Source of the DNA: a bacterium
GTDB lineage: Bacteria > Patescibacteriota > Minisyncoccia > UBA6257 > WO2-44-18
Direction: 5' to 3'
Length of the DNA: 64,000 nucleotides
Assembly (NCBI GenBank): GCA_030646995.1
Contig: JAUSKF010000002.1
Location: 12,092-76,091 of the forward strand
In this document: piece by piece, positions 5,094 to 61,802 of the stretch
Numbering within the stretch: position 1 is the stretch's first letter
Layout: each line of letters starts with the position of its first letter
Made by a program: the position numbers and the translations under genes
Notes under the pieces: generated by a model
What the model was told of the DNA's origin: nothing
The model's database searches: none
What the model saw: the letters and a program-made list of their open reading frames with translations, nothing else

Positions 5094-5498
5094 ATGTCGG
5101 TGATGTTGCTGAAAATATTTGTTGTAGCTTTTTTAATCAATGTGATCTGGGAATTTTCCCATTGCTGGCTTTATGCAACCATTCAGAAAATGAAAGGAGA
5201 GGATATCGTGAAGTTACTTTTGAAAATGTCCGTTAAAGACGGGGTTTGGATATCAATATTTTATTTAATTACCTATGCGGTATTTCAGAATCTGAATCCT
5301 TGGGATAACTGGATGCAGGTGGCCATTTTTGCAGTGATCGCTCTGATGTTTGCTTTCATTGATGAAAAGATTTCCGTGACTATGGGCCGTTGGGAATATG
5401 GTCCGAAGATGCCGCTAGTTTATGGTGTCGGCCTTACTCCGCTCTTAGAATTGGCCGTGACCGGTCTATTGACTTTTTGGGTCGTGACCAGCTTTTAA
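5094..5498 (+). CDS. Small hypothetical membrane protein
   Basis: 134-aa ORF with 3-4 hydrophobic segments; no recognisable motif. Confidence 0.35.
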   Translation: MSVMLLKIFVVAFLINVIWEFSHCWLYATIQKMKGEDIVKLLLKMSVKDGVWISIFYLITYAVFQNLNPWDNWMQVAIFAVIALMFAFIDEKISVTMGRWEYGPKMPLVYGVGLTPLLELAVTGLLTFWVVTSF

Positions 5499-5503
5499 TT
5501 TTT

Positions 5504-5584
5504 ACCTACTGCTCCAAATTTTCAATTCGAAGAAGCAGAAAATTTGGTTAGCAGTAGCAATCCCGAGCGTAGCGAGGGACTACC
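5504..5584. repeat. Family A two-hairpin intergenic repeat element, copy 1 of 4
   Basis: tacctactgctccaaattttcaattcgaagaagcagaaaatttggttagcagtagcaatcccgagcgtagcgaggga; near-identical copies at 40154, 47258 and 57948. Confidence 0.8.
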
Positions 5585-5825
5585 TACTCTCGATTAGCTT
5601 TAATTTCTTTTCCCTGTTCCATCCCTTTATCTCCATTTCCCTTTTTAATGCCGAGCCGCGAGTTTTACGTTTCTCCGTGTAAAGAATTTTTACAATGCGT
5701 TTTGCTCTTGTGTACTTCGCGCCGATGCCGGCTTTGTGTTCGGCAAAGCGGCGTTTAACATCGGTCGTGATTCCGGTATAAAGACTTTTGTCGGCGCAAA
5801 GCGCCATATATACAAACCAGGTCAT
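5580..5825 (-). CDS. GIY-YIG nuclease family protein (UPF0213-like)
   Basis: VYMALCADKSLYTGITTDVKRRFAEH… matches the GIY-YIG fold signature; 81 aa. Confidence 0.75.
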   Translation of the reverse strand: MTWFVYMALCADKSLYTGITTDVKRRFAEHKAGIGAKYTRAKRIVKILYTEKRKTRGSALKREMEIKGWNREKKLKLIESR

Positions 5826-5858: not shown

Positions 5859-6329
5859 ATGATGGATATACGAACACTGGATCAAGGTGACGTCATCGAG
5901 CTCTCTAGACTTGTGGGCGAGGTAGCTAATTATCATCACGAGATAGATCCGGTTTATAAATCTCATAATCAGTATTCCGGTCTGAAAGAAATGGTTGAAG
6001 GCTGGCTGACGGATGCCGACACTTTAGTTTTACTGGCGGAAGAAAATAAGAAATTAATCGGATATATCCGCATCGGAGTAGAGCCGGCGCCGGAGTATTC
6101 TACAGAAAAGAAAATTGGAATGGTCTATGACGCTTTCATTGAAGAAGAAAGCCGGAGGCAGGGGATTGCCGAACTTCTTTTTCAAAGATCGCTGGAGTGG
6201 TTTGCAAAAAAAGGAGTAGAGAACATAGAGCTGAACGTGGACGCCCGCAATAGTGGGGCAATCGAATTTTGGCGCCAGCTAGACTTCGCTGATTATAAAA
6301 TCCGGATGCGCCGCCCCCTCGATCTCTAG
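5859..6329 (+). CDS. GNAT family N-acetyltransferase
   Basis: …IELNVDARNSGAIEFWRQLDF… acetyl-CoA binding motif region; 156 aa. Confidence 0.7.
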   Translation: MMDIRTLDQGDVIELSRLVGEVANYHHEIDPVYKSHNQYSGLKEMVEGWLTDADTLVLLAEENKKLIGYIRIGVEPAPEYSTEKKIGMVYDAFIEEESRRQGIAELLFQRSLEWFAKKGVENIELNVDARNSGAIEFWRQLDFADYKIRMRRPLDL

Positions 6330-6350
6330 GTTTTGATTTTTTTGCATAAC

Positions 6351-6490
6351 CAAAGCGTAGGGAATAGTTTCGAGGAACATGCCGGAGCCCCGACGGCTTG
6401 GTCTTAATAGCCTCGGGGCGAGGGAGAGGCGAAATTGTTCGCTGGAAACAATTTACGCCGTTTCCGAGGGGCTATTCCCGGAGTCCTTGA
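6351..6490. ncRNA. Family B conserved structured element, copy 1 of 2 (unclassified ncRNA or structured repeat)
   Basis: ~95% identical flanks with copy at 34826-34984; internal hairpin differs with compensatory changes (aaattgtt…aacaattt vs aattgagc…gctcaatt). Confidence 0.5.
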
Positions 6491-6547
6491 TTTATAGGTG
6501 ATTTTTTGTTATTTTAATTATCGGCACATACAGAGAAGGAGGAGGCA

Positions 6548-6772
6548 GTGATGGAAAACTTCGAAAAAGAGAATCCCGAAAAGAAGGATCGCTGTGTTGA
6601 TTGTGGTGGCAAGGACGGTGTAGAGAAGCTCTCTGGCAAGACTGTTCCCGCTGGCAGGGAGGTACCGGTTTGTAGGATCTGCAAGGAGTCGCGCGCCGTG
6701 TTCTATCAGAAGAATGAAGTTCCGAAGCCTCTGCCGCAAAATCCCGATGGTCCGAATCGACGCTGTTGTTGA
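6548..6772 (+). CDS. Small zinc-ribbon-like Cys-rich protein
   Basis: Strong RBS GGAGGAGG upstream of ATG; CVDCGG…CRIC…CC motif; 74 aa; terminator follows. Confidence 0.5.
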   Translation: MMENFEKENPEKKDRCVDCGGKDGVEKLSGKTVPAGREVPVCRICKESRAVFYQKNEVPKPLPQNPDGPNRRCC

Positions 6773-6789
6773 AAAATAAGCTGACAAAT

Positions 6790-11057: not shown

Positions 11058-11127
11058 TGGGCGCAGTGGGAGTTGAACCCACATCTCCGGTGTACGACCG
11101 GATCCTGATAAGTTGGAAGATGCACCC
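11058..11127 (-). tRNA. tRNA-like sequence (non-canonical; possible anticodon GTA, or a pseudogene)
   Basis: Good acceptor (gggtgca/tgcgccc) and T-arm (gtgggttcaactcccac), but irregular D and variable regions; anticodon loop tcGTAca with C33. Confidence 0.35.
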
Positions 11128-11177: not shown

Positions 11178-11210
11178 GTACCAGACTTATAAAAAATAAA
11201 TAGAATGGTA
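11178..11210 (+). promoter_or_regulatory. GTACCAGACTTATA…ATGGTA motif (single copy) overlapping the M23 peptidase start codon
   Basis: gtaccagacttataaaaaataaatagaATGgta; same motif in three tandem copies at 48965-49078. Confidence 0.4.
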
Positions 11211-14715: not shown

Positions 14716-15285
14716 TTATGACCTATTGTCAATTGCGCTGGCCAGGGTTTCTTCGTCGGCAAATTCAATTTCTCCGCCCGTGGGGATGCCCCGGCCAAGA
14801 CGAGTTATTTTTCCAACGGTTTCTTTGAGCTCTTGGGCAATCAGGGAGGCGTTGATGTCGCCGTAAGTAGTCGGATTCATCGCTAAAATTGCTTCCTCTG
14901 CGGAGTTAATTGTCCTCAAGCGCAGCTTTTGCATACTGGTAAGAAAGCCGTCCTTTTTGAGTTCTCCCAAAACCAAATACCTTCCGTCAAACTTTTTAGC
15001 TTTTTCCAAAGAAATCAAATCCGTTTCTTTTTCCACGATTGCCACTAAGTCTTTCCGGCGGTTTGGATTAGAGCAGATGGCGCAAATTTCAGAATCCGGA
15101 GTAGTGGCAAAGCAAAATGAGCAGACCGCCAATGAGTTTAAGCCGCTGACCGCCTGCGCCAACTCCAGCACGTCCGCCCTTCCCTGATTTGCCAGATAAA
15201 AAGCTAAACGGGTAGCTTGGCGAGGTCCGATGCCCGGAAGCTTCGCTACTGCTTCAACGAATTTTTTAATAGGCTCCGGTACCAT
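14716..15285 (-). CDS. recR: Recombination protein RecR
   Basis: HhH (KLPGIGPRQATRLAFYL), C4 zinc finger (CSFCFATT…CAICSNP) and Toprim domain. Confidence 0.9.
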   Translation of the reverse strand: MVPEPIKKFVEAVAKLPGIGPRQATRLAFYLANQGRADVLELAQAVSGLNSLAVCSFCFATTPDSEICAICSNPNRRKDLVAIVEKETDLISLEKAKKFDGRYLVLGELKKDGFLTSMQKLRLRTINSAEEAILAMNPTTYGDINASLIAQELKETVGKITRLGRGIPTGGEIEFADEETLASAIDNRS

Positions 15286-15328
15286 TGTAGGATATTTTTA
15301 TTATTTAAATATTTAAACGTTTAAACCT
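15286..15328 (-). promoter_or_regulatory. Conserved TTTAAA-rich palindromic upstream module (copy upstream of recR; overlaps the dnaB stop)
   Basis: Reverse complement reads TTTAAACGTTTAAATATTTAAATAATAAAAATATCCTACAATG; near-identical modules before cysS, groEL and fusA. Confidence 0.55.
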
Positions 15329-16685: not shown

Positions 16686-18065
16686 TTATTTTTTTAGAAT
16701 CAGCGGACCGACTGGTGTGTCGTCTACTATGTATCCTAGCTCTTCCACTTCTTTCCGCAAGACATCAGCAGGAACAAACTGTTGATTATTTCTTAATAAC
16801 ATTCTTTGCTTCACCAGTCCCCGTATTTTAAAGGGAATATGAGGAAATTTCAGCTCAACTCCGAGCGTCTGCAGTCTCGCCAGGAGCCAATCGGCCACCA
16901 TCTCCGCTTCTTTTTGGGACAAGCTCCAGATTTCCGGATTAACGGCGTTCACTACACCAAACAAAGCGGCTAAAGCTTCAGGAGTATTGAAGTCGTCGGC
17001 CATAGCTGCATGAAAAACAGCTTCGGATTTTTTAAGCAGGGCTGCAATGTCCAGTTTGCCGGATTCTTTTTTTCTAACTAGTCGTAATTTTCCGATGAAC
17101 TGGCGTAAATTGGAAATAGAATTTTTTGTCTGCTCAGCTAATTTATCGGAGTAATCGAGAGGGGAGCGATAATGATGGCTGACCACCAGATATCGGAAAA
17201 GGGTGGGGGAGTGGGTTTTTAAAAAGTCGCGGATAGTGATGAAATTTCCCGCGCTCTTCGCCATCTTGGCGCCGTTTACCAAAAGATGCCCAGCATGCAT
17301 CCAAAGTTTCACCATCGGTTTTTTACCGGAAGCCGATTCCTGCTGGGCTATCTCCGCTTCGTGATGAGGAAATTTCAAATCGATACCGCCGCCGTGGATG
17401 TCATATTGCGGGCCGAAGAAATATTCAGTGATTGCCGTATCTTCAATATGCCAGCCGGGCCTTCCGGATCCCAGAGGGGTTTTCCAGCTCGGCTCTCCCT
17501 GCTTCTCGAATTTCCAGAGGCAGAAATCTCCTTTGTTGCGTTTATTTATCGCGTCATCAATTCTGGAAACCGAATCCTCGGCCTGCTCTAGTGTGCGATG
17601 GGATAATTTCCCGTAATCCGGAAATTTTGAAATATCAAAATAATATCCTTCGCTTTCAATCTTATAGGCGACTCCTTTATCAATCAAAGCTTGAATCTGT
17701 TTAACAATTTGCCTGATGTAGCTGGTAGCTTTAGCGTATTTATTGACCGAATCCACTCGCAGCTCCTTCATATCCTGCTTGTAGGCTTTGGTATAAAAAT
17801 TAGCGATTGTTTCCGGATATTTTTTCTCTTCCTTGGCGCGGTTGATTATTTTATCATCAATGTCAGTGATGTTTTGTAAATAAAAAACTTTTATCTTTTG
17901 CGAGCGCAGATAGCGGATTATGGAATCAAAAGCGGCATAAGTACGGCCGTTGCCGATATGCGCCAAGTCGTAAACGGTCGGCCCGCAGACGAACAGCTTT
18001 AATTTACCGCTCTCCGGAATCAGGAGCGGTTTTTTTTCACCGGACAAGGTATCAAAAATTATCAC
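16686..18065 (-). CDS. cysS: Cysteine--tRNA ligase (GTG start)
   Basis: HIGNGRTY (HIGH), KMAKS (KMSKS) and class I anticodon-binding domain; 459 aa. Confidence 0.9.
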   Translation of the reverse strand: MIIFDTLSGEKKPLLIPESGKLKLFVCGPTVYDLAHIGNGRTYAAFDSIIRYLRSQKIKVFYLQNITDIDDKIINRAKEEKKYPETIANFYTKAYKQDMKELRVDSVNKYAKATSYIRQIVKQIQALIDKGVAYKIESEGYYFDISKFPDYGKLSHRTLEQAEDSVSRIDDAINKRNKGDFCLWKFEKQGEPSWKTPLGSGRPGWHIEDTAITEYFFGPQYDIHGGGIDLKFPHHEAEIAQQESASGKKPMVKLWMHAGHLLVNGAKMAKSAGNFITIRDFLKTHSPTLFRYLVVSHHYRSPLDYSDKLAEQTKNSISNLRQFIGKLRLVRKKESGKLDIAALLKKSEAVFHAAMADDFNTPEALAALFGVVNAVNPEIWSLSQKEAEMVADWLLARLQTLGVELKFPHIPFKIRGLVKQRMLLRNNQQFVPADVLRKEVEELGYIVDDTPVGPLILKK

Positions 18066-18098
18066 CCTTTTTATTTAAATATTTAAATTTTTAAACAT
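18066..18098 (-). promoter_or_regulatory. Conserved TTTAAA-rich palindromic upstream module (copy upstream of cysS)
   Basis: Reverse complement reads TGTTTAAAAATTTAAATATTTAAATAAAAAGGGTG(start). Confidence 0.5.
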
Positions 18099-18117
18099 TG
18101 CAATATTGCGCTTCGCG

Positions 18118-27955: not shown

Positions 27956-28327
27956 TTATTTGAAAGCTTTAGCTCCATAGGAGATAGTCGCGTTCACCGC
28001 TCCAATCACTATAGTCGCCAAAACCAAAGGTATTAATCCACTTATTGTAAGCCCCGAAGAGAAAATGTCAACCAAATAGATAAGGGCGCCGTTCAGCACA
28101 AAACCTAAGATTCCCATCGTTAGCCAGATTAGAGGTTTGAGCATAAAGCGCAAAATGGGTAGGACGAACGAGTTAGCGAGGGTCAAAAGGACTACGACGA
28201 TCGCGATTCCCATCCAATCATCGGTAACCGCGAACCCCGAGATTAAGTACTCCGCCGCCAATAAAGCCGCTAAGTTAGAACCGAGGCTAATTAATATGCT
28301 AATCATTACTTTATTATACCATCCCAC
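27956..28327 (-). CDS. DUF360/phage-holin-4-like membrane protein
   Basis: 4 TM helices with repeated …ISGF…/…LPILRF… pattern resembling the DUF360 (Phage_holin_4_2) family. Confidence 0.5.
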   Translation of the reverse strand: MGWYNKVMISILISLGSNLAALLAAEYLISGFAVTDDWMGIAIVVVLLTLANSFVLPILRFMLKPLIWLTMGILGFVLNGALIYLVDIFSSGLTISGLIPLVLATIVIGAVNATISYGAKAFK

Positions 28328-28332
28328 TTAAT

Positions 28333-29583
28333 TTATATCAGGCTGGTACGCGTAGCAAACATTGCCTTGCTGCGAACCTGGCGGTGATAGCGGATCACGA
28401 AGTTGTGAGTTTGATGAATAGCGCGCTCGATCAACTCTTGAAGTTCTTTTGGCGCTTCGGCCATGCCGATTACTTTGCGATGAGGTTTGGCGTACGAAAC
28501 AAGTCGTATGTCGTCAGTCGTGTGTCGTTTGTGGAATTCGTCCAGTACTCGTTTCGCCGCCCGATATTGGGTAATACCGCCATCGATCACGATCAGATCG
28601 GGATATGGCCATTCGGGATGATTTAAGCGGCGCCCCAAAACCTCACTAATCATCCTCGGGTCGTCACGAGTAGGCGCTGATTTTATCTTAAATTTCCGGT
28701 AAGAGTTTTTATCCGACATCCAAACGCCATCTCGTTTTACCAATACCGTCATCGCTCCTACCGCTTCTTTCCCGGCAAAGTTTGAGTTGTCGTAGCATTC
28801 TATTTTTTGGATATCCAACTCCGAGGGTTTAACGGTATAAGTATTCAAAAATTCTTTGTGCTCAAAGATTCTTTCCAATGCCCAGCGCTCCTTTTCGTCT
28901 TTAAGCGATGCCATAAGCTTTTTGCCCGTGCCATTTAAAACCATTTTTATCGCCCGGATATTCTTCTGATATTGTTTTCTATTCGCAATATTACTTTTCC
29001 AGATTCGCATTACCTGCCTGCCGGCAGGCAGGTTGGCGATTACTCCATCTTTTTTGCAGCAAAAACCGAAGCATTTTCCGATTTGCGCGTTTAAGCAGTC
29101 GCGGAAATGAAGTTGGAAGCAAGAGCAGTAGGGGAATGAGCGGCGAAGTAATTTTAAAACAATCCGCAGGGCGCCACCGTCGGTGAAGGGGCCGATCCGT
29201 GCACGACTAACGACTAACGACGAACGACGATGAAGATTTTCATGCCCAACGACGATTTTCGGGAAGGTGTCCTTTGTAAAGTGGACATAAGAATAAGTCT
29301 TGTCGTCCATCCACAAAACGTTGTATTTCGGCTTTAAAGATTTAATCAGCCGCGATTCTTCTATCAGGGCTTCGATGTCGGAGCGTAAAACCGTGTATTC
29401 CAAATGATCCGCTTCTTCGTGAAGGGACTGGGTTTTCAGGTCGGTAATCTTCAAATACGATTTAAGCCTATTTTTGAGATTAGCCGCCTTTCCTATATAT
29501 AGGACTGCATTGCCCTGATAGAAGGTATAAACTCCTGGTTCGGTGGGTGAGTTTTTAATTTTTTGGATAATTGACTGGTGCAT
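28333..29583 (-). CDS. uvrC: UvrC-like excinuclease, short form (GIY-YIG plus RNase-H-like endonuclease domain, no C-terminal HhH)
   Basis: N-terminal PGVYTFYQGNAVLYIGKAANLKNRLKSYL (GIY-YIG of UvrC); C-terminal …IECYDNSNFAG…PDLIVIDGGITQ… endonuclease V-like block; 416 aa vs ~600 typical. Confidence 0.7.
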   Translation of the reverse strand: MHQSIIQKIKNSPTEPGVYTFYQGNAVLYIGKAANLKNRLKSYLKITDLKTQSLHEEADHLEYTVLRSDIEALIEESRLIKSLKPKYNVLWMDDKTYSYVHFTKDTFPKIVVGHENLHRRSSLVVSRARIGPFTDGGALRIVLKLLRRSFPYCSCFQLHFRDCLNAQIGKCFGFCCKKDGVIANLPAGRQVMRIWKSNIANRKQYQKNIRAIKMVLNGTGKKLMASLKDEKERWALERIFEHKEFLNTYTVKPSELDIQKIECYDNSNFAGKEAVGAMTVLVKRDGVWMSDKNSYRKFKIKSAPTRDDPRMISEVLGRRLNHPEWPYPDLIVIDGGITQYRAAKRVLDEFHKRHTTDDIRLVSYAKPHRKVIGMAEAPKELQELIERAIHQTHNFVIRYHRQVRSKAMFATRTSLI

Positions 29584-33666: not shown

Positions 33667-34146
33667 ATGGACCCCGAAAAGAAAATCTACTGGAGCGCGC
33701 CCGAGTTTGAATATCACGAAAAAACTCATGTTTGGTTTTGGATGATTGTGATTGGGGTAATCGCTATGGTTGCTGTAGCCCTCATTCAAAAGAACATTCT
33801 TTTTGCAATTTTTGCTGTCTTAGCAGGAGTTCTGGTGTTGCAGTGGGGGAAGACCAAGCCGGATTACGTAGATTTTCAATTAGATGAAGTGGGGATTAGC
33901 GTGGGCGGAAAAAATCCGCATCCATGGCAAGAATTTTCCGGCTTTGCGATTCACCGGCTTCATCACGAAGAAGAGGGGCTTTCCGAGTTAGTACTCCAGC
34001 GCACCGGCAGTCTTGGAACGCATTGGAAATTTCTGGTGCCAAATAAAGACGTGGATAGGGTCCGCCATTTCTCCAACCAGCATTTACATGAAATTGAATT
34101 TGAAGATTCGCTAATTGAGCACATCTCGCGCCTGTTGCGCTTCTAG
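33667..34146 (+). CDS. Hypothetical membrane protein (2 TM plus soluble domain)
   Basis: ATG 33667 (MDPEKKIYW…); hairpin-loop membrane anchor then ~100-aa soluble domain; start uncertain (track ORF from 33613). Confidence 0.4.
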   Translation: MDPEKKIYWSAPEFEYHEKTHVWFWMIVIGVIAMVAVALIQKNILFAIFAVLAGVLVLQWGKTKPDYVDFQLDEVGISVGGKNPHPWQEFSGFAIHRLHHEEEGLSELVLQRTGSLGTHWKFLVPNKDVDRVRHFSNQHLHEIEFEDSLIEHISRLLRF

Positions 34147-34180
34147 CTAAAAGTTGTAAAATACGTAAAGTTAGAAATAA

Positions 34181-34252
34181 GCCCTCGTCGTTCAATGGTT
34201 AGGACGCAAGATTGCGGATCTTGCGATTGTGGTTCGATTCCACACGAGGGCA
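34181..34252 (+). tRNA. tRNA-Arg (anticodon read as GCG; identity tentative)
   Basis: gccctcg-tc-gttcaatggttaggac-g-caaga-ttGCGga-tcttg-cgatt-gtggttcgattccac-acgagggc-a cloverleaf. Confidence 0.7.
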
Positions 34253-34431
34253 CAAAGTTACTCAAATAGTTCTCTCGCATCACCAGAGCTCTTTTTGGCC
34301 AGCGCCAAAAATGCTCTTTTCTCTCGGCGATTTACTCCGACTTAGCGTCGGAGACCGGCTAAATCACCTCCGAGATATGCTGCTCAAAAACTATTCTCGC
34401 TGTTGGGAAAATCAGCGAAGCGAGACCCCTG

Positions 34432-34450
34432 TTCCACACGAGGGCACAAA
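34432..34450 (+). repeat. 19-bp direct repeat of the tRNA-Arg 3' end (att-like duplication)
   Basis: ttccacacgagggcacaaa at 34239-34257 and again at 34432-34450. Confidence 0.7.
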
Positions 34451-34518
34451 TATAAAACTAGTTTTGCTATCCTTTATTTAGCTCCTTAATTAAGGACACC
34501 TACCTATGAGGTGCCCCG

Positions 34519-34737
34519 ATGAATGAGATAGCAGACGACATCCTGATGATTGCAAAAGTCTTCGCCGCATCGATTGTTGGGTTCTTGGTATTGGCGGGAT
34601 TCTTCGCGGCAGGGGAGGCCGAGGCTATTCTTTATGGCCTTCTAATACTCGCTAACATCCTCCTCGCAACCTTAATTTCCGTGACTGCTATGGTAATTAT
34701 GATTCTGCTGGGAGGTAGGTTTTGCCGGTTATTTTAG
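34519..34737 (+). CDS. Small hypothetical membrane protein
   Basis: 72 aa, two hydrophobic helices; terminator immediately downstream. Confidence 0.35.
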   Translation: MNEIADDILMIAKVFAASIVGFLVLAGFFAAGEAEAILYGLLILANILLATLISVTAMVIMILLGGRFCRLF

Positions 34738-34764
34738 GCCCCTTTTTTGGGGTCTATTTTTGTC
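34738..34764 (+). terminator. Rho-independent terminator
   Basis: ggccccttttttggggtc followed by T-run. Confidence 0.6.
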
Positions 34765-34825
34765 CCCGAATTAAACAAAGCGAATAAGGCTTTACCCCAA
34801 TGCTCTGAATAAGATTCCGTTCCCT

Positions 34826-34984
34826 CAAAGCGCAGGGAATAGTTTCGAGGAACGTGCCGGAGCCCCGACGGCTTGGTCTTATTAGCGTCGGGGCGAGGGA
34901 GAGGCAAATTGAGCCGCAGGCTTGCCCGCCTTAGGCGGGAGCTCAATTATGCCGTTTCCGAGGGGCTATTCCTGGAGCCCTTGA
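34826..34984. ncRNA. Family B conserved structured element, copy 2 of 2
   Basis: Flanks ~95% identical to 6351-6490; central hairpin replaced by a longer hairpin with compensatory pairing. Confidence 0.5.
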
Positions 34985-35098
34985 CAAAATGATATAAAGT
35001 ATGCTATTATGGTTTGGTAGTCGTTAGCAGTACATTCAATTAACCCCGGGCGTTCCGACTAAATAGTCGAGAATTAGCCCAAAATAAGGAGTAAAGCA

Positions 35099-35542
35099 AT
35101 GAACCCCAACAGCCACCTGTACATGTCCGCAGCGGTGATCGTCATCGCCGCCCTCGTGATCTTCGGAAGGAAGATCTGGGCGGCAGCGAAGGCGCCGTTC
35201 CAGTGGCTCGACCGCTGGATGAAGGACCTCACCAATGACTACAGTGGTGAGGATTCGGATCAGCGCGCGGATGTCTCCACGGAGCCGCTGACGCTGGCGA
35301 GAATCGAAGCGACGATGCTCCAGGACGAGCTCGTTGCCGGCCGCAACACGGGTCGGGTCCGCCAGTATCTGCGTAAGAAAGGCTGGCGGCTCGTCGAGTT
35401 CAAGGGCCACAGCGGCGGAATGAAGTTCGGGCTTGTGGTCGCCACGCGGAAGCGCGGTCTCCATGGGCAGGCCAGGATCAACGTCGGACCGGGAAAGTAC
35501 TCGGTCTGGCGCAGCCTGGCCAGCCTCCAAAAGGTGGCCTAA
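35099..35542 (+). CDS. Hypothetical protein with N-terminal TM helix, encoded by a strongly GC-rich (foreign) segment
   Basis: AAGGAG RBS 6 nt before ATG; ~60% GC vs ~45% surroundings; G/C-ending codon bias; long antisense ORF as expected for high-GC DNA. Confidence 0.55.
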   Translation: MNPNSHLYMSAAVIVIAALVIFGRKIWAAAKAPFQWLDRWMKDLTNDYSGEDSDQRADVSTEPLTLARIEATMLQDELVAGRNTGRVRQYLRKKGWRLVEFKGHSGGMKFGLVVATRKRGLHGQARINVGPGKYSVWRSLASLQKVA

Positions 35543-35591
35543 CCACTTCAAGTCCTATCGCCAGGTAGGCACCCCGGTATCTAAACCGGGC

Positions 35592-35643
35592 GCCCCGCAA
35601 GACTTTGAGCTATTTAGCTCTGGTCTCCGCGGGGCTTTTTTTA
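35592..35643 (+). terminator. Rho-independent terminator (compound hairpin)
   Basis: gccccgc…gcggggc stem enclosing gagctatttagctc, followed by ttttttt. Confidence 0.55.
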
Positions 35644-35692
35644 TTCAACATAAAGTGTTACAATATCCCCAGTTCATCAAGGAGAAAAAGAA

Positions 35693-35839
35693 GTGGGTTA
35701 TTTTGTTCCTGCCGCCCTGTTGATCTGCGCAATCATCTCTTTCGGCGTCGCTTGCTATATGAGCTACCGCGACAGAAATAAGAAAGATGAGTATTACAAA
35801 ATCCAACAGGAGCTGAAAAAGAAAAATGCCCGAGGTTGA
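35693..35839 (+). CDS. Small membrane peptide (48 aa, GTG start)
   Basis: AAGGAGAAAAAG RBS before GTG; single TM helix then KR-rich tail; followed by a terminator hairpin 35846-35892. Confidence 0.3.
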   Translation: MGYFVPAALLICAIISFGVACYMSYRDRNKKDEYYKIQQELKKKNARG

Positions 35840-35969
35840 CACAACCCCGCATCTTTTGCCAATTCGGCACAAGGTGCGGGGCTTTATTTTTCTCCCATTC
35901 GGATGTACCATCCCACAATAGTTATATTTGTCTGGTATATGAATAAGCTATACTTTGTTTAGTAAGTAT

Positions 35970-36041
35970 GGTGCCCATAGTGTAGCGGCAACACTAGAGT
36001 TTGTGGAACTCTCATCACGGGTTCGAATCCCGTTGGGCACC
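35970..36041 (+). tRNA. tRNA-His (anticodon GTG) with encoded G-1
   Basis: g-gtgccca-ta-gtgtagcggcaacact-agagt-ttGTGga-actct-catc-acgggttcgaatcccgt-tgggcac-c; G-1:C73 pair is diagnostic of tRNA-His. Confidence 0.85.
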
Positions 36042-36122
36042 CTAAGGGCTTCCTCGGAAGCCCAGTTTTAGGGGGCTTTCTTTTTGTTAAAAATTGATTA
36101 TAATAGGTAAACAGAAAAACTT

Positions 36123-36416
36123 ATGACTAATTTCAAACCGCTCTCAAATCACTTATTTATTGAACCTCTCAATACCGAGAAGGCCACGAAGTCCGGAATT
36201 GTTTTGCCGGAAACTGCCGAGAAAGAAAAGCCGATGGTGGGAATTGTGATAGCGGTCGGTGAAGGAAAACGAAATGAAAAAGGCGATGTTGTGCCGATGG
36301 CGGTAAAAGTCGGCGACAAGGTTTTATTTAAAAAATACGGCCCCGACGAAATTGAAGTAGAGGGGAAAAAATATCTGGTCGGAGAGGAAGATGATGTCCT
36401 CGCGATCCTGGAATAA
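36123..36416 (+). CDS. groES: Co-chaperonin GroES
   Basis: …KPLSNHLFIEPL…GIVLPETAKEKP…GEVVAVG… canonical Hsp10; 97 aa. Confidence 0.9.
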   Translation: MTNFKPLSNHLFIEPLNTEKATKSGIVLPETAEKEKPMVGIVIAVGEGKRNEKGDVVPMAVKVGDKVLFKKYGPDEIEVEGKKYLVGEEDDVLAILE

Positions 36417-36461
36417 TAATATTTAAACGTTTAAATATTTAAATAATAAAAATATTCTACA
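36417..36461 (+). promoter_or_regulatory. Conserved TTTAAA-rich palindromic upstream module (copy upstream of groEL)
   Basis: TATTTAAACGTTTAAATATTTAAATAATAAAAATATTCTACAATG; no CIRCE element seen. Confidence 0.55.
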
Positions 36462-38081
36462 ATGAGTAAACAAATTCTATTCAACGAAAAAGCCCGCGAG
36501 GCGATGAAAAAAGGTATTGATAAGCTGGCTCAAGCTGTCATTGCGACTCTTGGCCCGCGCGGCAAGGCGGTAGTTATTGAAAAGGGCTATGGCGCTCCGC
36601 AGGTTACTTTTGACGGCGTTACTGTTGCCAAAGAAATTGAACTCGAAGATAAATTCGAGAATCTTGGCGCTGATTTAATTAAACAGGCCGCTGATAAAAC
36701 CAATGATGCCGTTGGTGATGGCACCACTACTTCTATTGTATTGGCGCATTCTTTGATTGAAGAGGGCGAAAAGATGCTCAAATCCAAGGACGTAAATGTA
36801 ATTCAGCTCGCCGAAGATTTAAAGAAAGGCGCTCTTATTTTGGCGAAAAATCTTGAAGCTCAAAAAGAACCGGTGAATGATCTGGCGAAATTGGCTGAAG
36901 TTGCTTCACTTTCCGCGAAAGACAAAACCATCGGCGGCTTAATCGCTGAAGTAATTCACAAAGTTGGAAAGGAAGGCGTAGTCACCGTGGAAGATTCAAA
37001 CACCATCAGTAATTCGTATGAAGTAGTGGAGGGTATGCAGTTTGATCGTGGTTTCATCTCGCAATATATGATTACCAACAGCGAGCGGATGGAGTCCTCT
37101 TTGGAAAATCCGTATATTTTGGTTACCGATAAGAAAATTTCCGCCATCGCGGAGATTCTGCCGATTTTGGAAAAGGTGGTGCAAAGCGGAAAAAAGGAAA
37201 TGGTAATTATCGCCGATGATGTGGAAGGCGAGGCTCTGACTACTCTGGTAGTCAACAAACTCCGCGGCGTGTTCACCGTGCTTCCTTTGAAAGCTCCGGG
37301 ATTCGGAGATAGAAAAAAAGAAATGCTTCAGGATATCGCCACAATTACCGGCTCTCAATTTATTTCTGAAGAGCTTGGCAAAAAGCTGGAGGCGGTAGAA
37401 CTGGCCGATCTTGGTACGGCTCATCGGGTTGTGTCTAATAAAGACACCACCACAATCGTGGGCGGAAAAGGCGATAAGAAAAAAATTGAAGAGCGTGTTG
37501 CTCAATTGAAAGCCCAACTGCAAAAAGCGGAGTCCGGTTTTGATAAAGATAAATTACAGGAACGTTTGGGTAAGCTAGCCGGCGGAGTAGCCGTCATTAA
37601 AGTTGGCGCTCCGACCGAATCTGCCCAGAAAGAATTAAAAGATAGAGTTGAAGATGCTGTGGCCGCCACGAAGGCCGCGATGGAAGAAGGGATTGTGCCG
37701 GGAGGTGGAATGGCTTTGTTCTACGCAGGAATGGAATTACGTCATCCGCCAGCTGGCGGAAGCAGTATTGCCAACGATATTTTAATTGCCGCCTCCGAGG
37801 CTCCTATCCGCGCCATTGTGGAAAACTGCGGCCAATCTCCTGATTTTATTTTGAACCAACTTCCGAAGAAAGCGGGCTGGCAGGGTTTTGATGCCAACAA
37901 AGGAAAGATGGGGGATTTAAAGGCCGCCGGCATTGTGGATCCGCTGAAAGTCACCAAGACTGCCTTAATGAACGCCGTTTCCGTTGCCGCAAACTATCTC
38001 ACCATTGGCGCCGCCGTTACCGATATTCCTAAGAAAGAATCTCCAGTCGCCCCGCAGATGGGAGGAATGGGGGAGTACTAG
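36462..38081 (+). CDS. groEL: Chaperonin GroEL
   Basis: …[17 protein letters not shown]…, [10 protein letters not shown]…, C-terminal GGMGG-like tail; 539 aa. Confidence 0.95.
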
Positions 38082-40117: not shown

Positions 40118-40150
40118 AACCGGTACGCCCGCTTGCAAAAGCGGGTTTTT
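40118..40150 (+). terminator. Rho-independent terminator after guaB
   Basis: ccgcttgcaaaagcgg followed by tttttttt. Confidence 0.6.
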
Positions 40151-40153
40151 TTT

Positions 40154-40233
40154 ACCTACTGCTCAAAATTTTCAATTCAAAGAAGTAGAAAATTTTGTGT
40201 GCAGTAGCAATCCTGGGCGTAGCGTAGGATTAT
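40154..40233. repeat. Family A two-hairpin intergenic repeat element, copy 2 of 4
   Basis: tacctactgctcaaaattttcaattcaaagaagtagaaaattttgtgtgcagtagcaatcctgggcgtagcgtaggatta. Confidence 0.8.
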
Positions 40234-40291
40234 CTTGCAAAAAATCAACAGAAGTGTTAATATCTCGCCAGAACCCTAACAGGAAAGGAGA

Positions 40292-47224: not shown

Positions 47225-47252
47225 AACCGCTTCTTATAGGGGCGGTTTTTTT
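47225..47252 (+). terminator. Rho-independent terminator after bcp
   Basis: aaaccgcttcttataggggcggttttttt. Confidence 0.6.
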
Positions 47253-47257
47253 GTTGT

Positions 47258-47354
47258 TACCTACTGCTCAAAATTTTCAATTCAAAGAAGTAGAAAATTT
47301 TGTGTGCAGTAGCAATCCTGAGCCTGCCTGCCGGCAGGCGTAGCGTAGGACTAC
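47258..47354. repeat. Family A two-hairpin intergenic repeat element, copy 3 of 4 (with a 17-bp palindromic insertion)
   Basis: Same element as 40154-40233 but hairpin 2 carries the inserted cctgcctgccggcaggc. Confidence 0.8.
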
Positions 47355-47403: not shown

Positions 47404-48768
47404 ATGAACGAGGAAATAACTCCCAAAGTAGAGACGAAAGCATCCGGGTTTAACGGACTAGGAATTGCGCCGGGCATATTAGAAATGTTGGCTAAATTCG
47501 GTTATGAAACTCCGACTCCAATCCAAGAGCAGGCTATTCCGGTAGCAATGCAGGGAAAAGATATGGTGGGCATCGCTCAAACCGGCACGGGTAAAACTTT
47601 TGCTTTCGGAATTCCGATGATTCAGCGTTTGGCGCAAATCAAAGGCAGGGGATTAGTAGTACTTCCAACCCGCGAGCTGGCTACACAGGTAGATGAATCA
47701 CTTCACAAAATCGGAGGTCCGGGTTTACGCACTGCAGTTTTAATTGGCGGTATGGCAATGGGACCGCAAAAAGGCGCTTTGGCTCGTGATCCGCATATTA
47801 TTGTGGCCACCCCCGGACGCTTAAATGACCATCTTCAGCAAAGACTGGTGAGTTTGAGTAATGTGAAAATTGTGGTGCTTGATGAAGCCGACAGAATGTT
47901 GGATATGGGTTTTGCTCCGCAAATTCAGAAAATTTTTAACGCTCTTCCGGCTGAACGCCAAACGATGCTTTTTTCCGCCACAATGCCTCCGGAAATTATG
48001 ACGATGGCGACTAAGCATATGAAGCTGCCTATTCGCATTGAAGTAGCGCGATCCGGAAGTACCGCCGACAAAGTTACGCAGGAAATTTTTATTATCCGCA
48101 AAGAAGACAAAGTTCGCTTACTTGAAAAGCTTCTTCAGCAATATATCGGACCGGTATTAATTTTTACCAGAACTAAGCACGGAGCTAAGCGGCTTACTAG
48201 AGATGTTGCCGATATGGGTCACACCTCCGCCGAGTTGCACTCTAATCGCTCGGTCAATCAGCGCCGCGAAGCTTTGGACGGATTCAAAGCCGGAAAATAT
48301 CGCGTATTAATCGCTACCAATATTGCAGCCCGCGGTATTGATGTGAGCGGGATTGAATTGGTAGTCAATTTTGATTTACCGAGCGATACCGACGACTACG
48401 TGCACCGCATTGGCCGCACTGCTCGCGCCGGCGCTGAAGGTCACGCCATTTCTCTCGCTACTCCTGAACAACGAGGCGAGCTTCGCGACATTGAACGCCT
48501 GATTCAAAAGCGTTTGCAGGTTTCTCCGGTTCCGGAGCTTCCGCCTGCCCGACCGACAAGATACGTCCCAAGGGACGAGCCGAGATCTTTTCGTGGCGGC
48601 GGTCGGCCATCTTTTGGCGGAAGCCACGCTCAGCGGGGCGGTTCTCGCTCCGGTGGCGCTGGTCGCCCAAGTTTTGGGGGAGCCCTCCGCCGGCCGGCGG
48701 ACCGCCCGCATCCAGGAGGTTCTTTCGGCGGCGCTCGCCGCTCTCCTCGCCCCCGATTCCGCCGCTAG
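47404..48768 (+). CDS. DEAD-box ATP-dependent RNA helicase with Arg/Gly/Pro-rich C-terminal tail
   Basis: Q-motif, AQTGTGKT (Walker A), DEAD, SAT, HRIGRTARAG; 454 aa. Confidence 0.9.
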   Translation: MNEEITPKVETKASGFNGLGIAPGILEMLAKFGYETPTPIQEQAIPVAMQGKDMVGIAQTGTGKTFAFGIPMIQRLAQIKGRGLVVLPTRELATQVDESLHKIGGPGLRTAVLIGGMAMGPQKGALARDPHIIVATPGRLNDHLQQRLVSLSNVKIVVLDEADRMLDMGFAPQIQKIFNALPAERQTMLFSATMPPEIMTMATKHMKLPIRIEVARSGSTADKVTQEIFIIRKEDKVRLLEKLLQQYIGPVLIFTRTKHGAKRLTRDVADMGHTSAELHSNRSVNQRREALDGFKAGKYRVLIATNIAARGIDVSGIELVVNFDLPSDTDDYVHRIGRTARAGAEGHAISLATPEQRGELRDIERLIQKRLQVSPVPELPPARPTRYVPRDEPRSFRGGGRPSFGGSHAQRGGSRSGGAGRPSFGGALRRPADRPHPGGSFGGARRSPRPRFRR

Positions 48769-48964: not shown

Positions 48965-49078
48965 GTACCAGACTTATAGAAATTTAATGGGATGGTACGC
49001 GTACCAGACTTATAGAACTAAAGTGGGATGGTACTGCGTGCGTACCAGACTTATAGAAATTTAATAGGATGGTATAAT
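48965..49078 (+). repeat. Three tandem ~34-37-bp direct repeats (GTACCAGACTTATAGAA-N7-GGGATGGTAC) upstream of the copper cluster; the last unit ends in TGGTATAAT
   Basis: Units at 48965-48998, 49001-49034, 49042-49078; a related single unit at 11178-11210. Confidence 0.75.
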
Positions 49079-57916: not shown

Positions 57917-57947
57917 AGATGATTTCCAGCCCCTTTCGGGGCTTTTT

Positions 57948-58029
57948 TACCTGTTGCTTAAAATTTTCAATTCGCAGAAGCCGAAAATTTTTCCAGCAAC
58001 AGCAATCCTGAGCGCAGCGTAGGATTACC
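57948..58029. repeat. Family A two-hairpin intergenic repeat element, copy 4 of 4 (compensatory stem changes)
   Basis: tacctgttgcttaaaattttcaattcgcagaagccgaaaatttttccagcaacagcaatcctgagcgcagcgtaggattacc; ctgttgct/agcaacag replaces ctactgct/agcagtag. Confidence 0.8.
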
Positions 58030-58120
58030 TTAAAAATTATTATAATTGACTTTTCGGCTCTAGCGTGCTAAATTATCGCCAGTCAGTTGAGTTCTTCGAA
58101 AACCCAATAAGGAGCAGCCT

Positions 58121-59610: not shown

Positions 59611-59651
59611 CCTGAAAAGTTAATAAAGCTTCTAAAAAGAAACCTGAATAA

Positions 59652-59693
59652 TGTTTAAATATTTAAACATTTAAATAATAAAGATATCCTACA
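59652..59693 (+). promoter_or_regulatory. Conserved TTTAAA-rich palindromic upstream module (copy upstream of fusA)
   Basis: TGTTTAAATATTTAAACATTTAAATAATAAAGATATCCTACAATG. Confidence 0.55.
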
Positions 59694-61802
59694 ATGGCAA
59701 GATTATATCCAGTTGAAAGAGTCCGAGACTTCGGAATTATTGCGCACATTGATGCAGGAAAGACTACTGTGTCCGAGCGGGTGCTTTTTTATACCGGCGT
59801 TTCCCACAAAATCGGTGAAGTGCACACCGGCGACACTGTTATGGACTGGATGGAGCAGGAGCGCGAGCGTGGCATCACTATTACCGCCGCCGCTACCACC
59901 GCTTTTTGGATTCCAAGCTATGCAAATGGCGACAAAACAAAAGAATATCGCTTCAACCTGATTGATACTCCCGGCCACATCGACTTTACAGTTGAGGTAA
60001 AGCGTTCTTTGCGTGTTTTGGACGGCGCAGTCGTGGTATTCGACGGCGTATCCGGCGTAGAACCGCAATCCGAAACCAACTGGCGCTATGCCGATGACTA
60101 CGGCGTACCGAGACTTTGCTTCATTAATAAATTGGATCGTATGGGAGCGAGCTTTGAAAATAGCTTGGCTTCGATTCGCGAGCGCTTAAACCCGAATGCA
60201 ATAGCCATTCAGTTGCCGATTGGCTTGGAGGCCGCCTTTGAGGGTCTGGTGGATTTAATCAAAATGAAGGCGTATAAGTTCGAGGGCGAGAAAGGTTCCG
60301 ATATCATAGAAATTGAAATTCCGGAAAATATGAAAGTGGAGGCTCTTAAGCGCCGAAAGGAATTGATTGAAAAGATTGTTGAACAGGACGATGCGTTGAT
60401 GGCTTTGTATCTCGACGGGCAGGAACCAAGCGTTGATGAACTAAAGCGCGTACTTCGCAAAGCTACTTTGGAATTGAAAATCGTGCCGGTCTTAACCGGT
60501 TCGGCTTTGAAAAACAAAGGCGTACAGCTGATGTTGGACGCGGTTGTGGATTATCTACCGTCTCCAGCCGACATTAAGCCGACCAAAGCTACCGACTTGA
60601 AAACTAATCAGGAAGTTTTTCGTAAACCGGACGACAAGGAACCGTTTACGGCGTTGGCTTTTAAAATCGCAACCGATCCTTTCGTGGGCAGCTTAACTTT
60701 TTTTCGAGTCTATTCCGGAACCCTCAAACGTGGAAGCTACATCCAAAACTCTAATAAGGGGACACAGGAACGCGTCGGCCGTATTTTAAAAATGCATGCC
60801 AACCAACGGGAAGAAATCGAAGAAATTTATGCCGGTGAAATCGGCGCTTTGGTAGGTATGAAAGCCACAACTACCGGTGATACACTTTGCGATCCTGAAT
60901 CAAATCCGGTAATGCTTGAGAAAATTATCTTCCCACAGCCGGTTATCGGCATCCGCATTGAGCCGAAAACAAAAGCTGACCAAGAAAAAATGGGTATGGC
61001 TTTGCATCGCTTAGCTGACGAAGATCCGACTTTCCGCGTGGCCGGCGATCCGGAAACAGGAGAGACCATCATTTCCGGTATGGGTGAGTTGCACTTGGAA
61101 ATTATTGTGGACCGTATGAAGCGCGAATTCGGCGTGGACGCCAACGTGGGCAGGCCACAAGTAGCTTATAAAGAAACCATTAAAGGAAAAGCTGAAGCCG
61201 AAGGTAAATACATCAAGCAGTCCGGCGGTAAGGGTCAGTACGGACACGTTTGGATTAAAATGGAGCCGCTGGAGCGTGGCAAGGGATTTGAATTCGTCGA
61301 TGAAACCAAAGGAGGTTCCGTTCCGAAAGAATTTATTAAGCCTGCGATGAAAGGTATCGAAGAAGCGATGGCCCGCGGTGTTGTGGCCGGCTTCCCGATG
61401 ATTGACGTGATGGTTACTCTTTTTGATGGTTCTTTCCACGAAGTAGACTCTTCGGAATCTGCTTTCAAAATCGCCGGCTCAATGGCTTTCCAGGAAGGCG
61501 CCAAGAAAGCGAAGGCGATTATGCTTGAGCCGATTATGAAAATACAGGTTTTGGCCCCGGCTAATTATTTGGGAGATATCACCGGAGATTTAAGCTCGAA
61601 ACGTGGTCAGATTAATGAAATGAGCGACCGAATGGGTGGCATTAAAGTTGTGGATGCTAAGGTTCCGCTTTCGGAAATGTTCGGCTACGCAACCAAACTT
61701 CGCTCTATGACGCAAGGCCGCGGAAACTTCACTATGGAATTCTCCAGCTATGAAGAAGTGCCGGCAAGCGTTGCGGCTTTGATCAAAGACCGAAAGAAAT
61801 AG
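59694..61802 (+). CDS. fusA: Elongation factor G
   Basis: [22 protein letters not shown] GTPase motifs and EF-G domains II-V; 702 aa. Confidence 0.95.

Follow-up and report, generated by a model that had tools for sequence, protein, structure and literature searches.

Does a gene of strongly deviant composition that lies beside a tRNA gene, and that belongs to no known family, have to be foreign? The question is raised by the interval between the genes for tRNA-Arg and tRNA-His in a 64-kb stretch of bacterial DNA (GenBank assembly GCA_030646995.1, contig JAUSKF010000002.1, positions 12,092 to 76,091), termed here the window, which comes from a Patescibacteria (candidate phyla radiation, CPR) genome. 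The gene in question, termed X, encodes a single-pass membrane protein of 147 amino acids (aa). Its GC content is 63% in a window of 46% GC, and the fractions of G and C at the first, second and third codon positions (GC1/2/3) are 0.61/0.45/0.84. Open reading frames (ORFs) of 200 aa or more in the window have a mean GC3 of 0.49 (standard deviation, sd, 0.055; maximum 0.60), and X exceeds its genome by about 17 GC points and about 35 GC3 points. A first-pass annotation of the same sequence had described an ORF of ~60% GC with G/C-ending codons, far above its neighbours, and the measured values bear this out. It went on to read the interval as a decayed integrative island that had captured X from a high-GC donor.

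The analysis presented here leads to a different explanation, to which we assign a probability of roughly 0.6: X belongs to a resident, conserved gene cluster, the trace of mobile DNA at tRNA-Arg is a scar of 194 bp, and the high GC3 of X is maintained by selection on RNA folding.

Gene X in related genomes

Where else is X found? Homologues are few, as three were found in a search of 5.8 billion proteins and 12 in a profile search of 1.84 billion cluster representatives. All those that can be placed on a contig fall in the same neighbourhood. The contigs of these relatives (given L numbers here) are labelled Patescibacteria group or Candidatus Saccharibacteria, and X is at the same locus in at least ten of them (L001, L003, L004, L006-L010, L012 and L013), a small and partly redundant set in which most contigs are short (1-4 kb) and several come from one sequencing project. 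Among GTDB species genomes there is one X relative, the L001 contig itself. The shared gene order consists of a gene for a 159-aa protein, tRNA-Arg(GCG), an optional 72/84-aa ORF, one or two copies of X, an ORF of 40-54 aa with a transmembrane segment, tRNA-His, in some cases NUDIX and other genes, and groES-groEL. Is the interval variable, as an island would be? Small differences do exist, i.e. the presence of the 72-aa ORF, the number of X copies (one or two) and inserted repeat elements.

The composition of X is as constant as its position. GC3 lies between 0.71 and 0.87 in all 14 X copies, versus 0.44-0.61 for groES, groEL and the 72-aa gene on the same contigs. These copies are far from identical, as the proteins have 24-60% amino-acid identity to that of the window and 23-50% of the codons for identical residues differ. 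They fall into two old paralogue types, A (which includes proteins P0001-P0007) and B (which includes P0009, P0011, P0012, P0015 and P0016), and tandem A+B pairs are present in L006, L010 and L013. Because the anomaly persists across diverged orthologues and paralogues at one locus, the high GC3 appears to be maintained and is not the leftover of a donor. The comparison with sister genomes had been named beforehand as a check on recent acquisition; it shows the same gene in the same interval, with the same non-native codon usage, and the proposed capture from a high-GC donor does not survive it. Judging from these comparisons, X is a resident gene and the interval is a conserved, lineage-specific cluster of genes for small membrane proteins, not an island.

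Could X still be a recent arrival at tRNA-Arg, with a GC and codon anomaly that simply represents foreign DNA that has not yet drifted? A real repeat of the tRNA 3' end, a GC3 of 0.84 in a 46% GC window and the lack of a known family all fit this idea, yet it is very improbable. X lies outside the segment bounded by the repeat and is present where the tRNA-Arg site is empty, i.e. in L006, which still bears two X paralogues. Its gene order is kept in at least ten contigs at 24-60% identity and with synonymous divergence, GC3 being high throughout, and its promoter and leader are of host type and common to all copies. No X homologue was found in phage, plasmid or viral (IMG/VR) collections, in JGI metagenome contigs or in any recognizably high-GC lineage, and no donor lineage is visible.

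The lack of an assignable family, which the first-pass annotation had pointed out, was encountered again in database searches: there is no significant Pfam, NCBIfam, PADLOC, PHROG or PDB-sequence match for X or the small ORFs, the best being a PHROG holin with an E-value of 0.024. The proteins of the interval, which lies on a 162-kb contig of a metagenome-assembled genome, carry NCBI locus tags Q7S83_00725 to Q7S83_00745 and are all annotated as hypothetical, and a literature search found nothing specific to the X family.

Two related contigs show additional features at this locus. In L009, two more ORFs for small transmembrane proteins lie downstream of X (656-811 and 888-1058), with GC3 values of 0.75 and 0.81; in some lineages, X is perhaps not the only small membrane-protein gene of high GC3. 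In L001, a 55-nt repeat (TTCTGGATTCCCGCTGGAGTTTACCCCGTACCGCGATACGGGGCGGGAATGACAG) is found at 1-55 and 1245-1298, and its second copy lies inside an insertion of ~370 nt (960-1330) between the X terminator and the small transmembrane ORF. This insertion indicates that the X locus gathers different small repeats in different lineages.

The repeat at tRNA-Arg

What, then, is the repeat at tRNA-Arg? The first-pass annotation had reported that the last 19 nt of the tRNA recur 175 bp downstream. The recurrence is real: the 19-mer (TTCCACACGAGGGCACAAA) has exactly two copies in the 64-kb window, 175 bp apart, and none of 100 shuffles matched this, even with two mismatches permitted. Its description as tRNA sequence holds only in part, however, as the first 15-16 nt lie within the tRNA, and the last 3-4 nt (CAAA) are downstream of it. 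The spacer between the copies (34257-34431) is single copy across the window and all compared loci; it has no credible gene or ORF, and no other copy was found anywhere searched.

Comparison with three relatives is informative. The same 159-aa gene precedes tRNA-Arg(GCG) in L006 and L015. L006 represents an empty site, where tRNA-Arg continues directly into a terminator, without a repeat. Relative to L006, L008 has a 43-nt insertion in the T-loop of the tRNA, which consists of a 16-nt repeat copy and 27 nt; the L008 contig begins inside tRNA-Arg. The second repeat copy of L008 runs on into sequence that aligns with the native post-tRNA sequence of L006 (the terminator), and the right end of the window spacer (CAGCGAAGCGAGACCCCTG) matches L008 sequence (AGCGAAGCGAACGCCCTTG) beside that copy. 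When the window is aligned with L006 and L008, the insertion point falls in the T-loop, and by-eye reading of both sequences shows that the window sequence after copy 2 is continuous with the downstream sequence of L008. The contig of L015, which is from the same sample as L007, stops exactly at the T-loop, as expected if the repeat breaks the assembly there.

On comparison with L006 and L008, the inserted DNA is only the segment 34238-34431, i.e. 194 bp made up of copy 1 and the spacer. Copy 1 would be the tRNA 3' end supplied by the element and copy 2 the displaced original 3' end, and the agent of the insertion was probably an integrase. An element of this type would recombine with the T-loop of tRNA-Arg, provide a new 3' end and shift the original one downstream. 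The T-loop is a usual crossover site of tRNA-targeting integrases, whose elements rebuild the tRNA 3' end. The integrase attachment (att) footprint that the first-pass annotation recognized is therefore supported for the 194-bp insert, with its empty site in L006 and a short version in L008, but it does not extend to the genes beyond. A decayed island containing ORFs finds no place here, as the repeat bounds just 175 bp of gene-free DNA of 49% GC. X, the 72-aa ORF, the repeat element termed family B and the 48-aa ORF are all outside the repeat-bounded segment, and X is 650 bp past copy 2.

Recombinase genes were also looked for. There is no recombinase domain in the neighbours of the repeat segment and none within the 175 bp. 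No integrase is present among the best 25 of the 66 Pfam families matched by 34 window proteins, where a weak match elsewhere is possible. Within each genome the two repeat copies have the same sequence, whereas the window (CCACACGAGGGC) and L008 (CCTCACGGGGGC) have different ones; the copies thus track the tRNA. This identity can represent either independent insertion of related elements that match their host or homogenization of the copies.

Might the 19-nt repeat have arisen by local duplication, or serve as a tRNA-like minihelix or a processing signal, instead of being a recombination scar? The joint variation of repeat and tRNA between genomes would suit such a role. In addition, the 7 nt ahead of copy 2 in L008 (GCCCTTG) can pair with CGGGGGC, as read by eye, to form a hairpin that resembles an acceptor stem. 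We consider this unlikely. The spacer is unique and not copied from adjacent DNA, the repeat identity stops sharply in the T-loop, a usual place for tRNA-targeting integrases to cross over, and copy 2 of L008 passes into the native downstream sequence seen at the L006 empty site. Neither ARAGORN nor Rfam detects a tRNA-like gene at copy 2.

Of interest at the same tRNA is an inverted 14-nt copy of the tRNA-Arg T-arm (GTTCGATTCCTCAC) in L006 (671-686), ~50 nt downstream of the tRNA. It may be the trace of another recombination event at tRNA-Arg.

Folding of the X transcript and the source of its GC3

If X is resident, what keeps its GC3 high? The coding region of the window X has a minimum free energy of -223 kcal/mol, compared with -185 ± 5.9 for dinucleotide shuffles (z = -6.49). 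In a family-wide run, z for this copy was -5.8 with dinucleotide shuffles and -7.0 with synonymous-codon permutations, which preserve both the protein and the codon usage. Values of -3 or lower were obtained in 11 of the 14 X copies against dinucleotide shuffles (range -0.7 to -6.3) and in 10 of 14 against synonymous-codon permutations (range -0.2 to -7.0). Control coding segments from the same contigs, 17 in number, gave z from +1.6 to -2.5, and a control with the same 63% GC, a DEAD-box helicase segment, gave -0.2.

The predicted structures show signs of conservation. RNAalifold analysis of the first 171 nt of seven type-A X genes yields three hairpin regions with 41 pairs, nine of which are changed on both sides. 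One hairpin, for example, spans the codons for DLTxDYSGED; its Ser codon is AGY in some genes and UCC in others, and the bases that pair with it change accordingly. With this structure 89% of cells are paired, versus 36-53% when partners are slid by 1-3 columns, and none of 500 shuffles attains the observed covariation. There is no consistent masking of the Shine-Dalgarno sequence, the pairing of which is moderate, and no hok-like helix that closes the 5' and 3' ends; pairing partners differ between X copies.

Structure is also predicted outside of the coding region. X is a putative single-gene transcription unit with its own promoter, leader, ORF and 3' untranslated region (3' UTR) with a terminator, as judged from sequence signals. 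The same promoter motif, cTTGACAaa…TATGCTAT(A/T)AT, precedes X genes in relatives. The leader of the window X is 82 nt long, and its stem-loop recurs in 10 of the 13 leaders compared. In the basal stem, GGGC/GCCC alternates with GAGC/GCUC, a covarying change, and pairing is kept in the apical stems although their sequences vary. RNAalifold predicts 28 pairs in the 3' UTR from six sequences, four of these with compensatory changes. The window 3' UTR is 75-84% identical to those of the type-B paralogues in L006, L007 and L008. A consensus scan, which cannot exclude such a site, found nothing resembling a minus-strand promoter in or beside X.

Synonymous sites in X change less than expected. For the same genome pairs, synonymous divergence (dS) is 0.4-0.9 in X and 1.2-3.6 in groES, and it is saturated in the 72-aa gene; the ratio of nonsynonymous to synonymous divergence (dN/dS) is 0.25-1.1 in X and 0.03-0.09 in groES. 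In simulations, the codon bias of X alone limits dS to ~1.2. When saturation was simulated with this bias, the observed synonymous differences fell in the lowest 7% or less of simulations in 19 of 21 pairs.

Other causes of the high GC3 were considered and rejected. The first is translational selection. The rest of the window is rich in housekeeping genes (EF-Tu, EF-G, Hsp70, DnaJ, DnaB, CysRS, IMPDH and groESL), yet GC3 is 0.47-0.48 in groES and groEL, and no window ORF of at least 200 aa exceeds 0.60 though EF-Tu, EF-G and Hsp70 are present. Amino-acid composition cannot yield a GC3 of 0.84. The long antisense ORF over X that had been noted earlier is there (35036-35551, 171 aa), but as a gene it fails: three of nine copies have a stop in it, and its GC peaks at the first position of its own codons instead of the third. 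That it is open at all can be attributed to its codon-aligned frame, as TTA, CTA and TCA are rare in a GC3-rich gene. The window has one other strong GC peak (48300-48768, up to 65%), where a DEAD-box helicase (ORF 47404-48768) has a C-terminal tail rich in Arg and Gly; this peak is not a comparable case, since amino-acid composition explains it and excess folding is lacking (z -0.2).

Selection for a strongly base-paired transcript is the most likely main cause of the GC3 anomaly, on the grounds of the excess stability over synonymous permutations, the compensatory changes in the hairpins and fewer synonymous differences than expected. What might the fold do? By analogy with type I toxin mRNAs, it would most likely set the lifetime of the mRNA or throttle translation of a fast-evolving membrane protein.

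Several points weigh against this explanation. Much of the low dS of X is set by the codon-bias ceiling of ~1.2, and the remaining deficit could come from recombination among relatives; the window X is seemingly a mosaic, as its type-A coding sequence is joined to a type-B 3' UTR. Three copies are GC3-rich and yet weakly folded (L007, z -1.2; L008, -2.3; L010a, -0.7), and since they show little excess folding, folding is perhaps not the whole cause of the GC3 bias. The covariation test used seven related sequences, and the structure was derived from the same sequences; all X RNA structures are predictions. The 'genome' GC of the relatives rests on little sequence. With respect to the scar, no integrase or full-length element was found to back the att interpretation.

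Could X alternatively be a cassette that related Patescibacteria often exchange by homologous recombination, as do tandem paralogues with each other, with the conserved leader and the 3' UTR as flanks? High GC3, low dS and high dN would then result from GC-biased gene conversion and diversifying selection on the protein, and folding would be a side effect. This is possible, though well short of likely. The dS of X is 2-5 times below that of flanking genes in the same genome pairs, with dN/dS up to ~1.1, and the window locus is a mosaic in which the 3' UTR and the downstream ORF are both of type B but the coding sequence is of type A. A C-terminal variant is common to L004 and L006a, and there are tandem A+B pairs in L006, L010 and L013. 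Gene conversion, on the other hand, cannot give a stability 3.7-7 sd past that of synonymous-codon permutations and does not explain the compensatory pair changes. Moreover, the rise in GC begins abruptly at the start codon of X and ends as abruptly at its stop codon, although conversion tracts would be expected to extend into the conserved flanks. Selection on folding remains the preferred explanation, and exchange among relatives and paralogues, by recombination or gene conversion, is an alternative that could account for part of the data.

With folding this strong, is X a protein gene at all? The locus might mainly encode a structured non-coding RNA of ~0.6 kb, in the style of the OLE, ROOL and GOLLD RNAs, where the ORF is incidental to high GC. 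The very strong folding z-scores, the conserved hairpins, the near-even spread of substitutions over the three codon positions and the high dN/dS are what one would expect of such an RNA, but the signs of coding make it highly unlikely. The GC1/2/3 periodicity of 0.61/0.45/0.84 is strict in all X copies, the ATG has a strong Shine-Dalgarno sequence ahead of it, and none of the 14 copies (330-600 nt) has lost its open frame through insertions and deletions. Homology between types A and B persists at the protein level where DNA no longer aligns, AlphaFold2 is confident for a transmembrane helix and a barrel, and there is no Rfam match. Taken together, these properties support the view that X is coding.

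The X family proteins are 111-199 aa long. The AlphaFold2 model of the window protein (mean predicted local distance difference test, pLDDT, 74) has an N-terminal helix at residues 5-48 (pLDDT ~90) that includes the transmembrane segment, a disordered acidic linker with a near-invariant SGEDSDQ motif and a C-terminal four-strand barrel at residues 98-139 (pLDDT ~90). The barrel resembles Tudor, KOW and R67-DHFR (SH3-like) domains, with target TM-scores of 0.6-0.78 and weak Foldseek E-values of 0.03-0.2. Positive residues that follow the transmembrane segment suggest that the barrel is cytoplasmic.

Surroundings of X and comparison with known systems

The features of the interval are listed in Table 1. 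Both tRNA genes, the 72-aa and 48-aa membrane ORFs and the family B element named in the first-pass annotation are all present.

Table 1. Features between tRNA-Arg and tRNA-His, with positions in the window
Feature	Position	Strand	Remarks
tRNA-Arg (anticodon GCG), no encoded CCA	34181..34253	+	ARAGORN; Rfam tRNA, 62.3 bits
Direct-repeat copy 1 (T-loop to discriminator + CAAA)	34238..34256	+	Exact 19-mer
Spacer between repeats, 175 bp	34257..34431	unassigned	49% GC
Terminator-like hairpin inside spacer	34292-34311		Terminator scan
Direct-repeat copy 2	34432..34450	+	Exact 19-mer
72-aa two-helix membrane protein gene, GC3 0.55	34519..34737	+	Terminator after it, 34735-34756
Family B element, Y-shaped three-way junction	~34826..34984	+	Directly against the -35 box of the X promoter
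X promoter: TTGACA, 18 nt, TATTAT + TG extension	34981..35010	+	11/12 consensus positions, sigma-70-type
Conserved leader stem-loop	35048..35080	+	Just 5' of Shine-Dalgarno AAGGAG (35086-35091)
X, 147-aa single-pass membrane protein gene (NCBI locus tag Q7S83_00740)	35099..35542	+	444-bp ORF
X 3' UTR, three conserved hairpins, the last an intrinsic terminator with T-run	35543..35643	+	Terminator scan
48-aa membrane peptide gene (one transmembrane helix + basic tail), ordinary composition	35693..35839	+	ORF list
Palindromic TACCA…TGGTA motif	35905..35937	+	Upstream of tRNA-His; inverted-repeat pair with 49002-49034
tRNA-His (GTG)	35971..36042	+	ARAGORN, Rfam; then groES 36123-36416, groEL 36462-38081

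The small ORFs beside X also have relatives. ORFs of 72-84 aa homologous to the 72-aa gene are upstream of X in L001, L003, L008, L010 and L013, and a dN/dS of 0.03-0.35 points to purifying selection on this gene. ORFs of 40-46 aa homologous to the 48-aa ORF follow the type-B X genes in L006, L007 and L008; in the window, a hairpin with a T-run can be read by eye after the ORF (~35845-35891). The tRNA-His gene precedes groES in L001, L004 and L006 as well.

Family B is a second structured unit next to X. Its other copy in the window (6351-6490) shares 83 nt at 94% and 38 nt at 92% identity with the first, around a central hairpin that has been replaced. Folding z-scores of the two are -2.1 and -4.1, and the third hairpin, wholly replaced between the copies, still pairs. 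The outer stem uses G-U pairs on the plus strand and is better as a plus-strand RNA than as DNA inverted repeats. Both window copies, and the one in L007, directly precede a -35 box. The L007 contig starts with the end of the element, a partial copy that abuts the X promoter, and the close relative L008 has nothing at the same spot; this difference suggests that family B is a structured element that was recently mobile or lost. No target-site duplication was seen and there is no Rfam family for it. A metagenome scan with a family B 16-mer returned 120 loci, all of them chance matches confined to the seed. The copy at 6351-6490 lies just upstream of a promoter-like TTGATT…TATTTT and an ORF of 74 aa (6551-6775), which has CxxC…CxxC (zinc-ribbon-like) motifs and is, by eye, somewhat richer in GC than its surroundings.

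The window is host to other repeats. A family of ~100 nt (75-80% identity) forms a long hairpin (ACCTACTGCTCAAAATTTTC…GAAAATTTTGTGTGCAGTAGC) and is found at 5492-5591, 40142-40241, 47247-47346 and 57937-58036. It is situated after terminators and is present also in L007 (1060-1085) and L008 (1480-1505), where both contigs end in the element after the small transmembrane ORF; it looks like a miniature inverted-repeat transposable element, one that breaks assemblies. The 33-nt palindromic motif (GTACCAGACTTATAGAAATTTAATGGGATGGTA) is at 48965-49074 (three in tandem), 11178-11210, 28310-28357 (inverted) and 35905-35937 (inverted). Its end overlaps a TATAAT-like box, and it is promoter- or operator-like and common to a few genes and tRNA genes. 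An AT-rich leader of ~50 nt (AATAATATTTAAACGTTTAAATATTTAAATAATAAAAATATTCTACAATG), up to 98% identical between copies, is at 36415-36464, 59647-59696, 15283-15325 (inverted) and 18051-18100. Copies end in start codons, that of groEL at 36415-36464 and that of a 702-aa ORF, possibly EF-G, at 59647-59696; the leader precedes some genes that are likely to be highly expressed and, unlike the X leader with its strong AAGGAG, shows no obvious Shine-Dalgarno sequence. Rfam also reports a second tRNA at 11058-11127 on the minus strand, beside tRNA-Met, with 33.3 bits, just over the gathering score; ARAGORN does not.

What does the X locus add? It constitutes a counter-example, as a tRNA-adjacent, repeat-flanked gene with GC3 ~35 points high would be called a transfer by most island finders, and comparison with relatives instead points to a resident gene whose composition is actively maintained. 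The X family of Patescibacteria appears to be a case where selection on RNA folding is strong enough to reshape codon usage across a coding region. If confirmed, it would offer a system for the study of limits that mRNA structure sets on bacterial synonymous sites, and a new RNA of regulatory or dual function may come to light next to the groESL operon.

How does the locus compare with known systems? The scar shares with attL/attR scars, as known from genomic islands, prophages and CIME-type remnants, an exact repeat of the tRNA 3' end from the T-loop on, an insert that supplies a new tRNA 3' end, and an empty site and a shorter version in relatives. It differs in that no integrase was found, that only 175 bp (27 nt in L008) separate the repeats, and that the insert carries no cargo gene, has an ordinary 49% GC and does not include the neighbouring genes. 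Genes of atypical GC or codon usage are commonly read as markers of transfer, and X resembles these as a single deviant gene beside tRNA genes; unlike them, it has an anomaly that is conserved across diverged copies at one locus. At the protein level, the C-terminal 45 residues of X, modelled as a four-strand barrel, superpose on Tudor, KOW and R67-DHFR barrels. The Foldseek E-values are weak and there is no PDB or Pfam sequence match to these, however, and the membrane anchor and SGEDSDQ linker are particular to the X family.

Large structured RNAs offer another comparison. RNAs of the OLE, ROOL and GOLLD type are often near tRNA genes, and OLE RNA works with the protein OapA. The X transcript is similar to these and to HEARO in its length (~0.6 kb), in a GC content and a degree of structure far above those of the adjoining sequence and in its place between tRNA genes; the link to a membrane protein is a further feature that it shares with OLE. 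It differs by its conserved, codon-periodic ORF and has no Rfam model match: with Rfam 15, only tRNAs pass the gathering threshold in the window, and nothing meaningful appears at E<=5 in 34100-36100 or at E<=1 in 6300-6540. One can imagine that X transcripts represent a new class of ornate, dual-function RNAs of ~0.6 kb in Patescibacteria, where the fold itself is functional, an idea that is speculative and that we regard as improbable. The membrane-anchored, Tudor/KOW-like protein might, for example, bind its own RNA, by analogy with OLE and OapA, to form a membrane-tethered ribonucleoprotein; alternatively, the fold could switch translation in response to stress or temperature, at a site upstream of groESL. 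An RNA function superimposed on a coding sequence would then have left the extreme GC3 as its footprint.

Type I toxin mRNAs (hok/sok, tisB, aapA1) and RNAIII bear a closer likeness. They have in common with X a single-gene, terminator-bounded transcript, a protein with an N-terminal transmembrane segment and extensive conserved pairing of the mRNA, with synonymous-site constraint in X. The X proteins, at 111-199 aa and with a folded C-terminal domain, differ from the toxins, which are <60 aa; in addition, no antisense RNA or antisense promoter was found for X by a consensus scan, which could miss one, and Shine-Dalgarno sequestration is inconsistent between copies. X is a member of none of these classes and is best described as a structured, synonymously constrained mRNA, the nearest analogues of which are the type I toxin mRNAs and dual-function RNAs.

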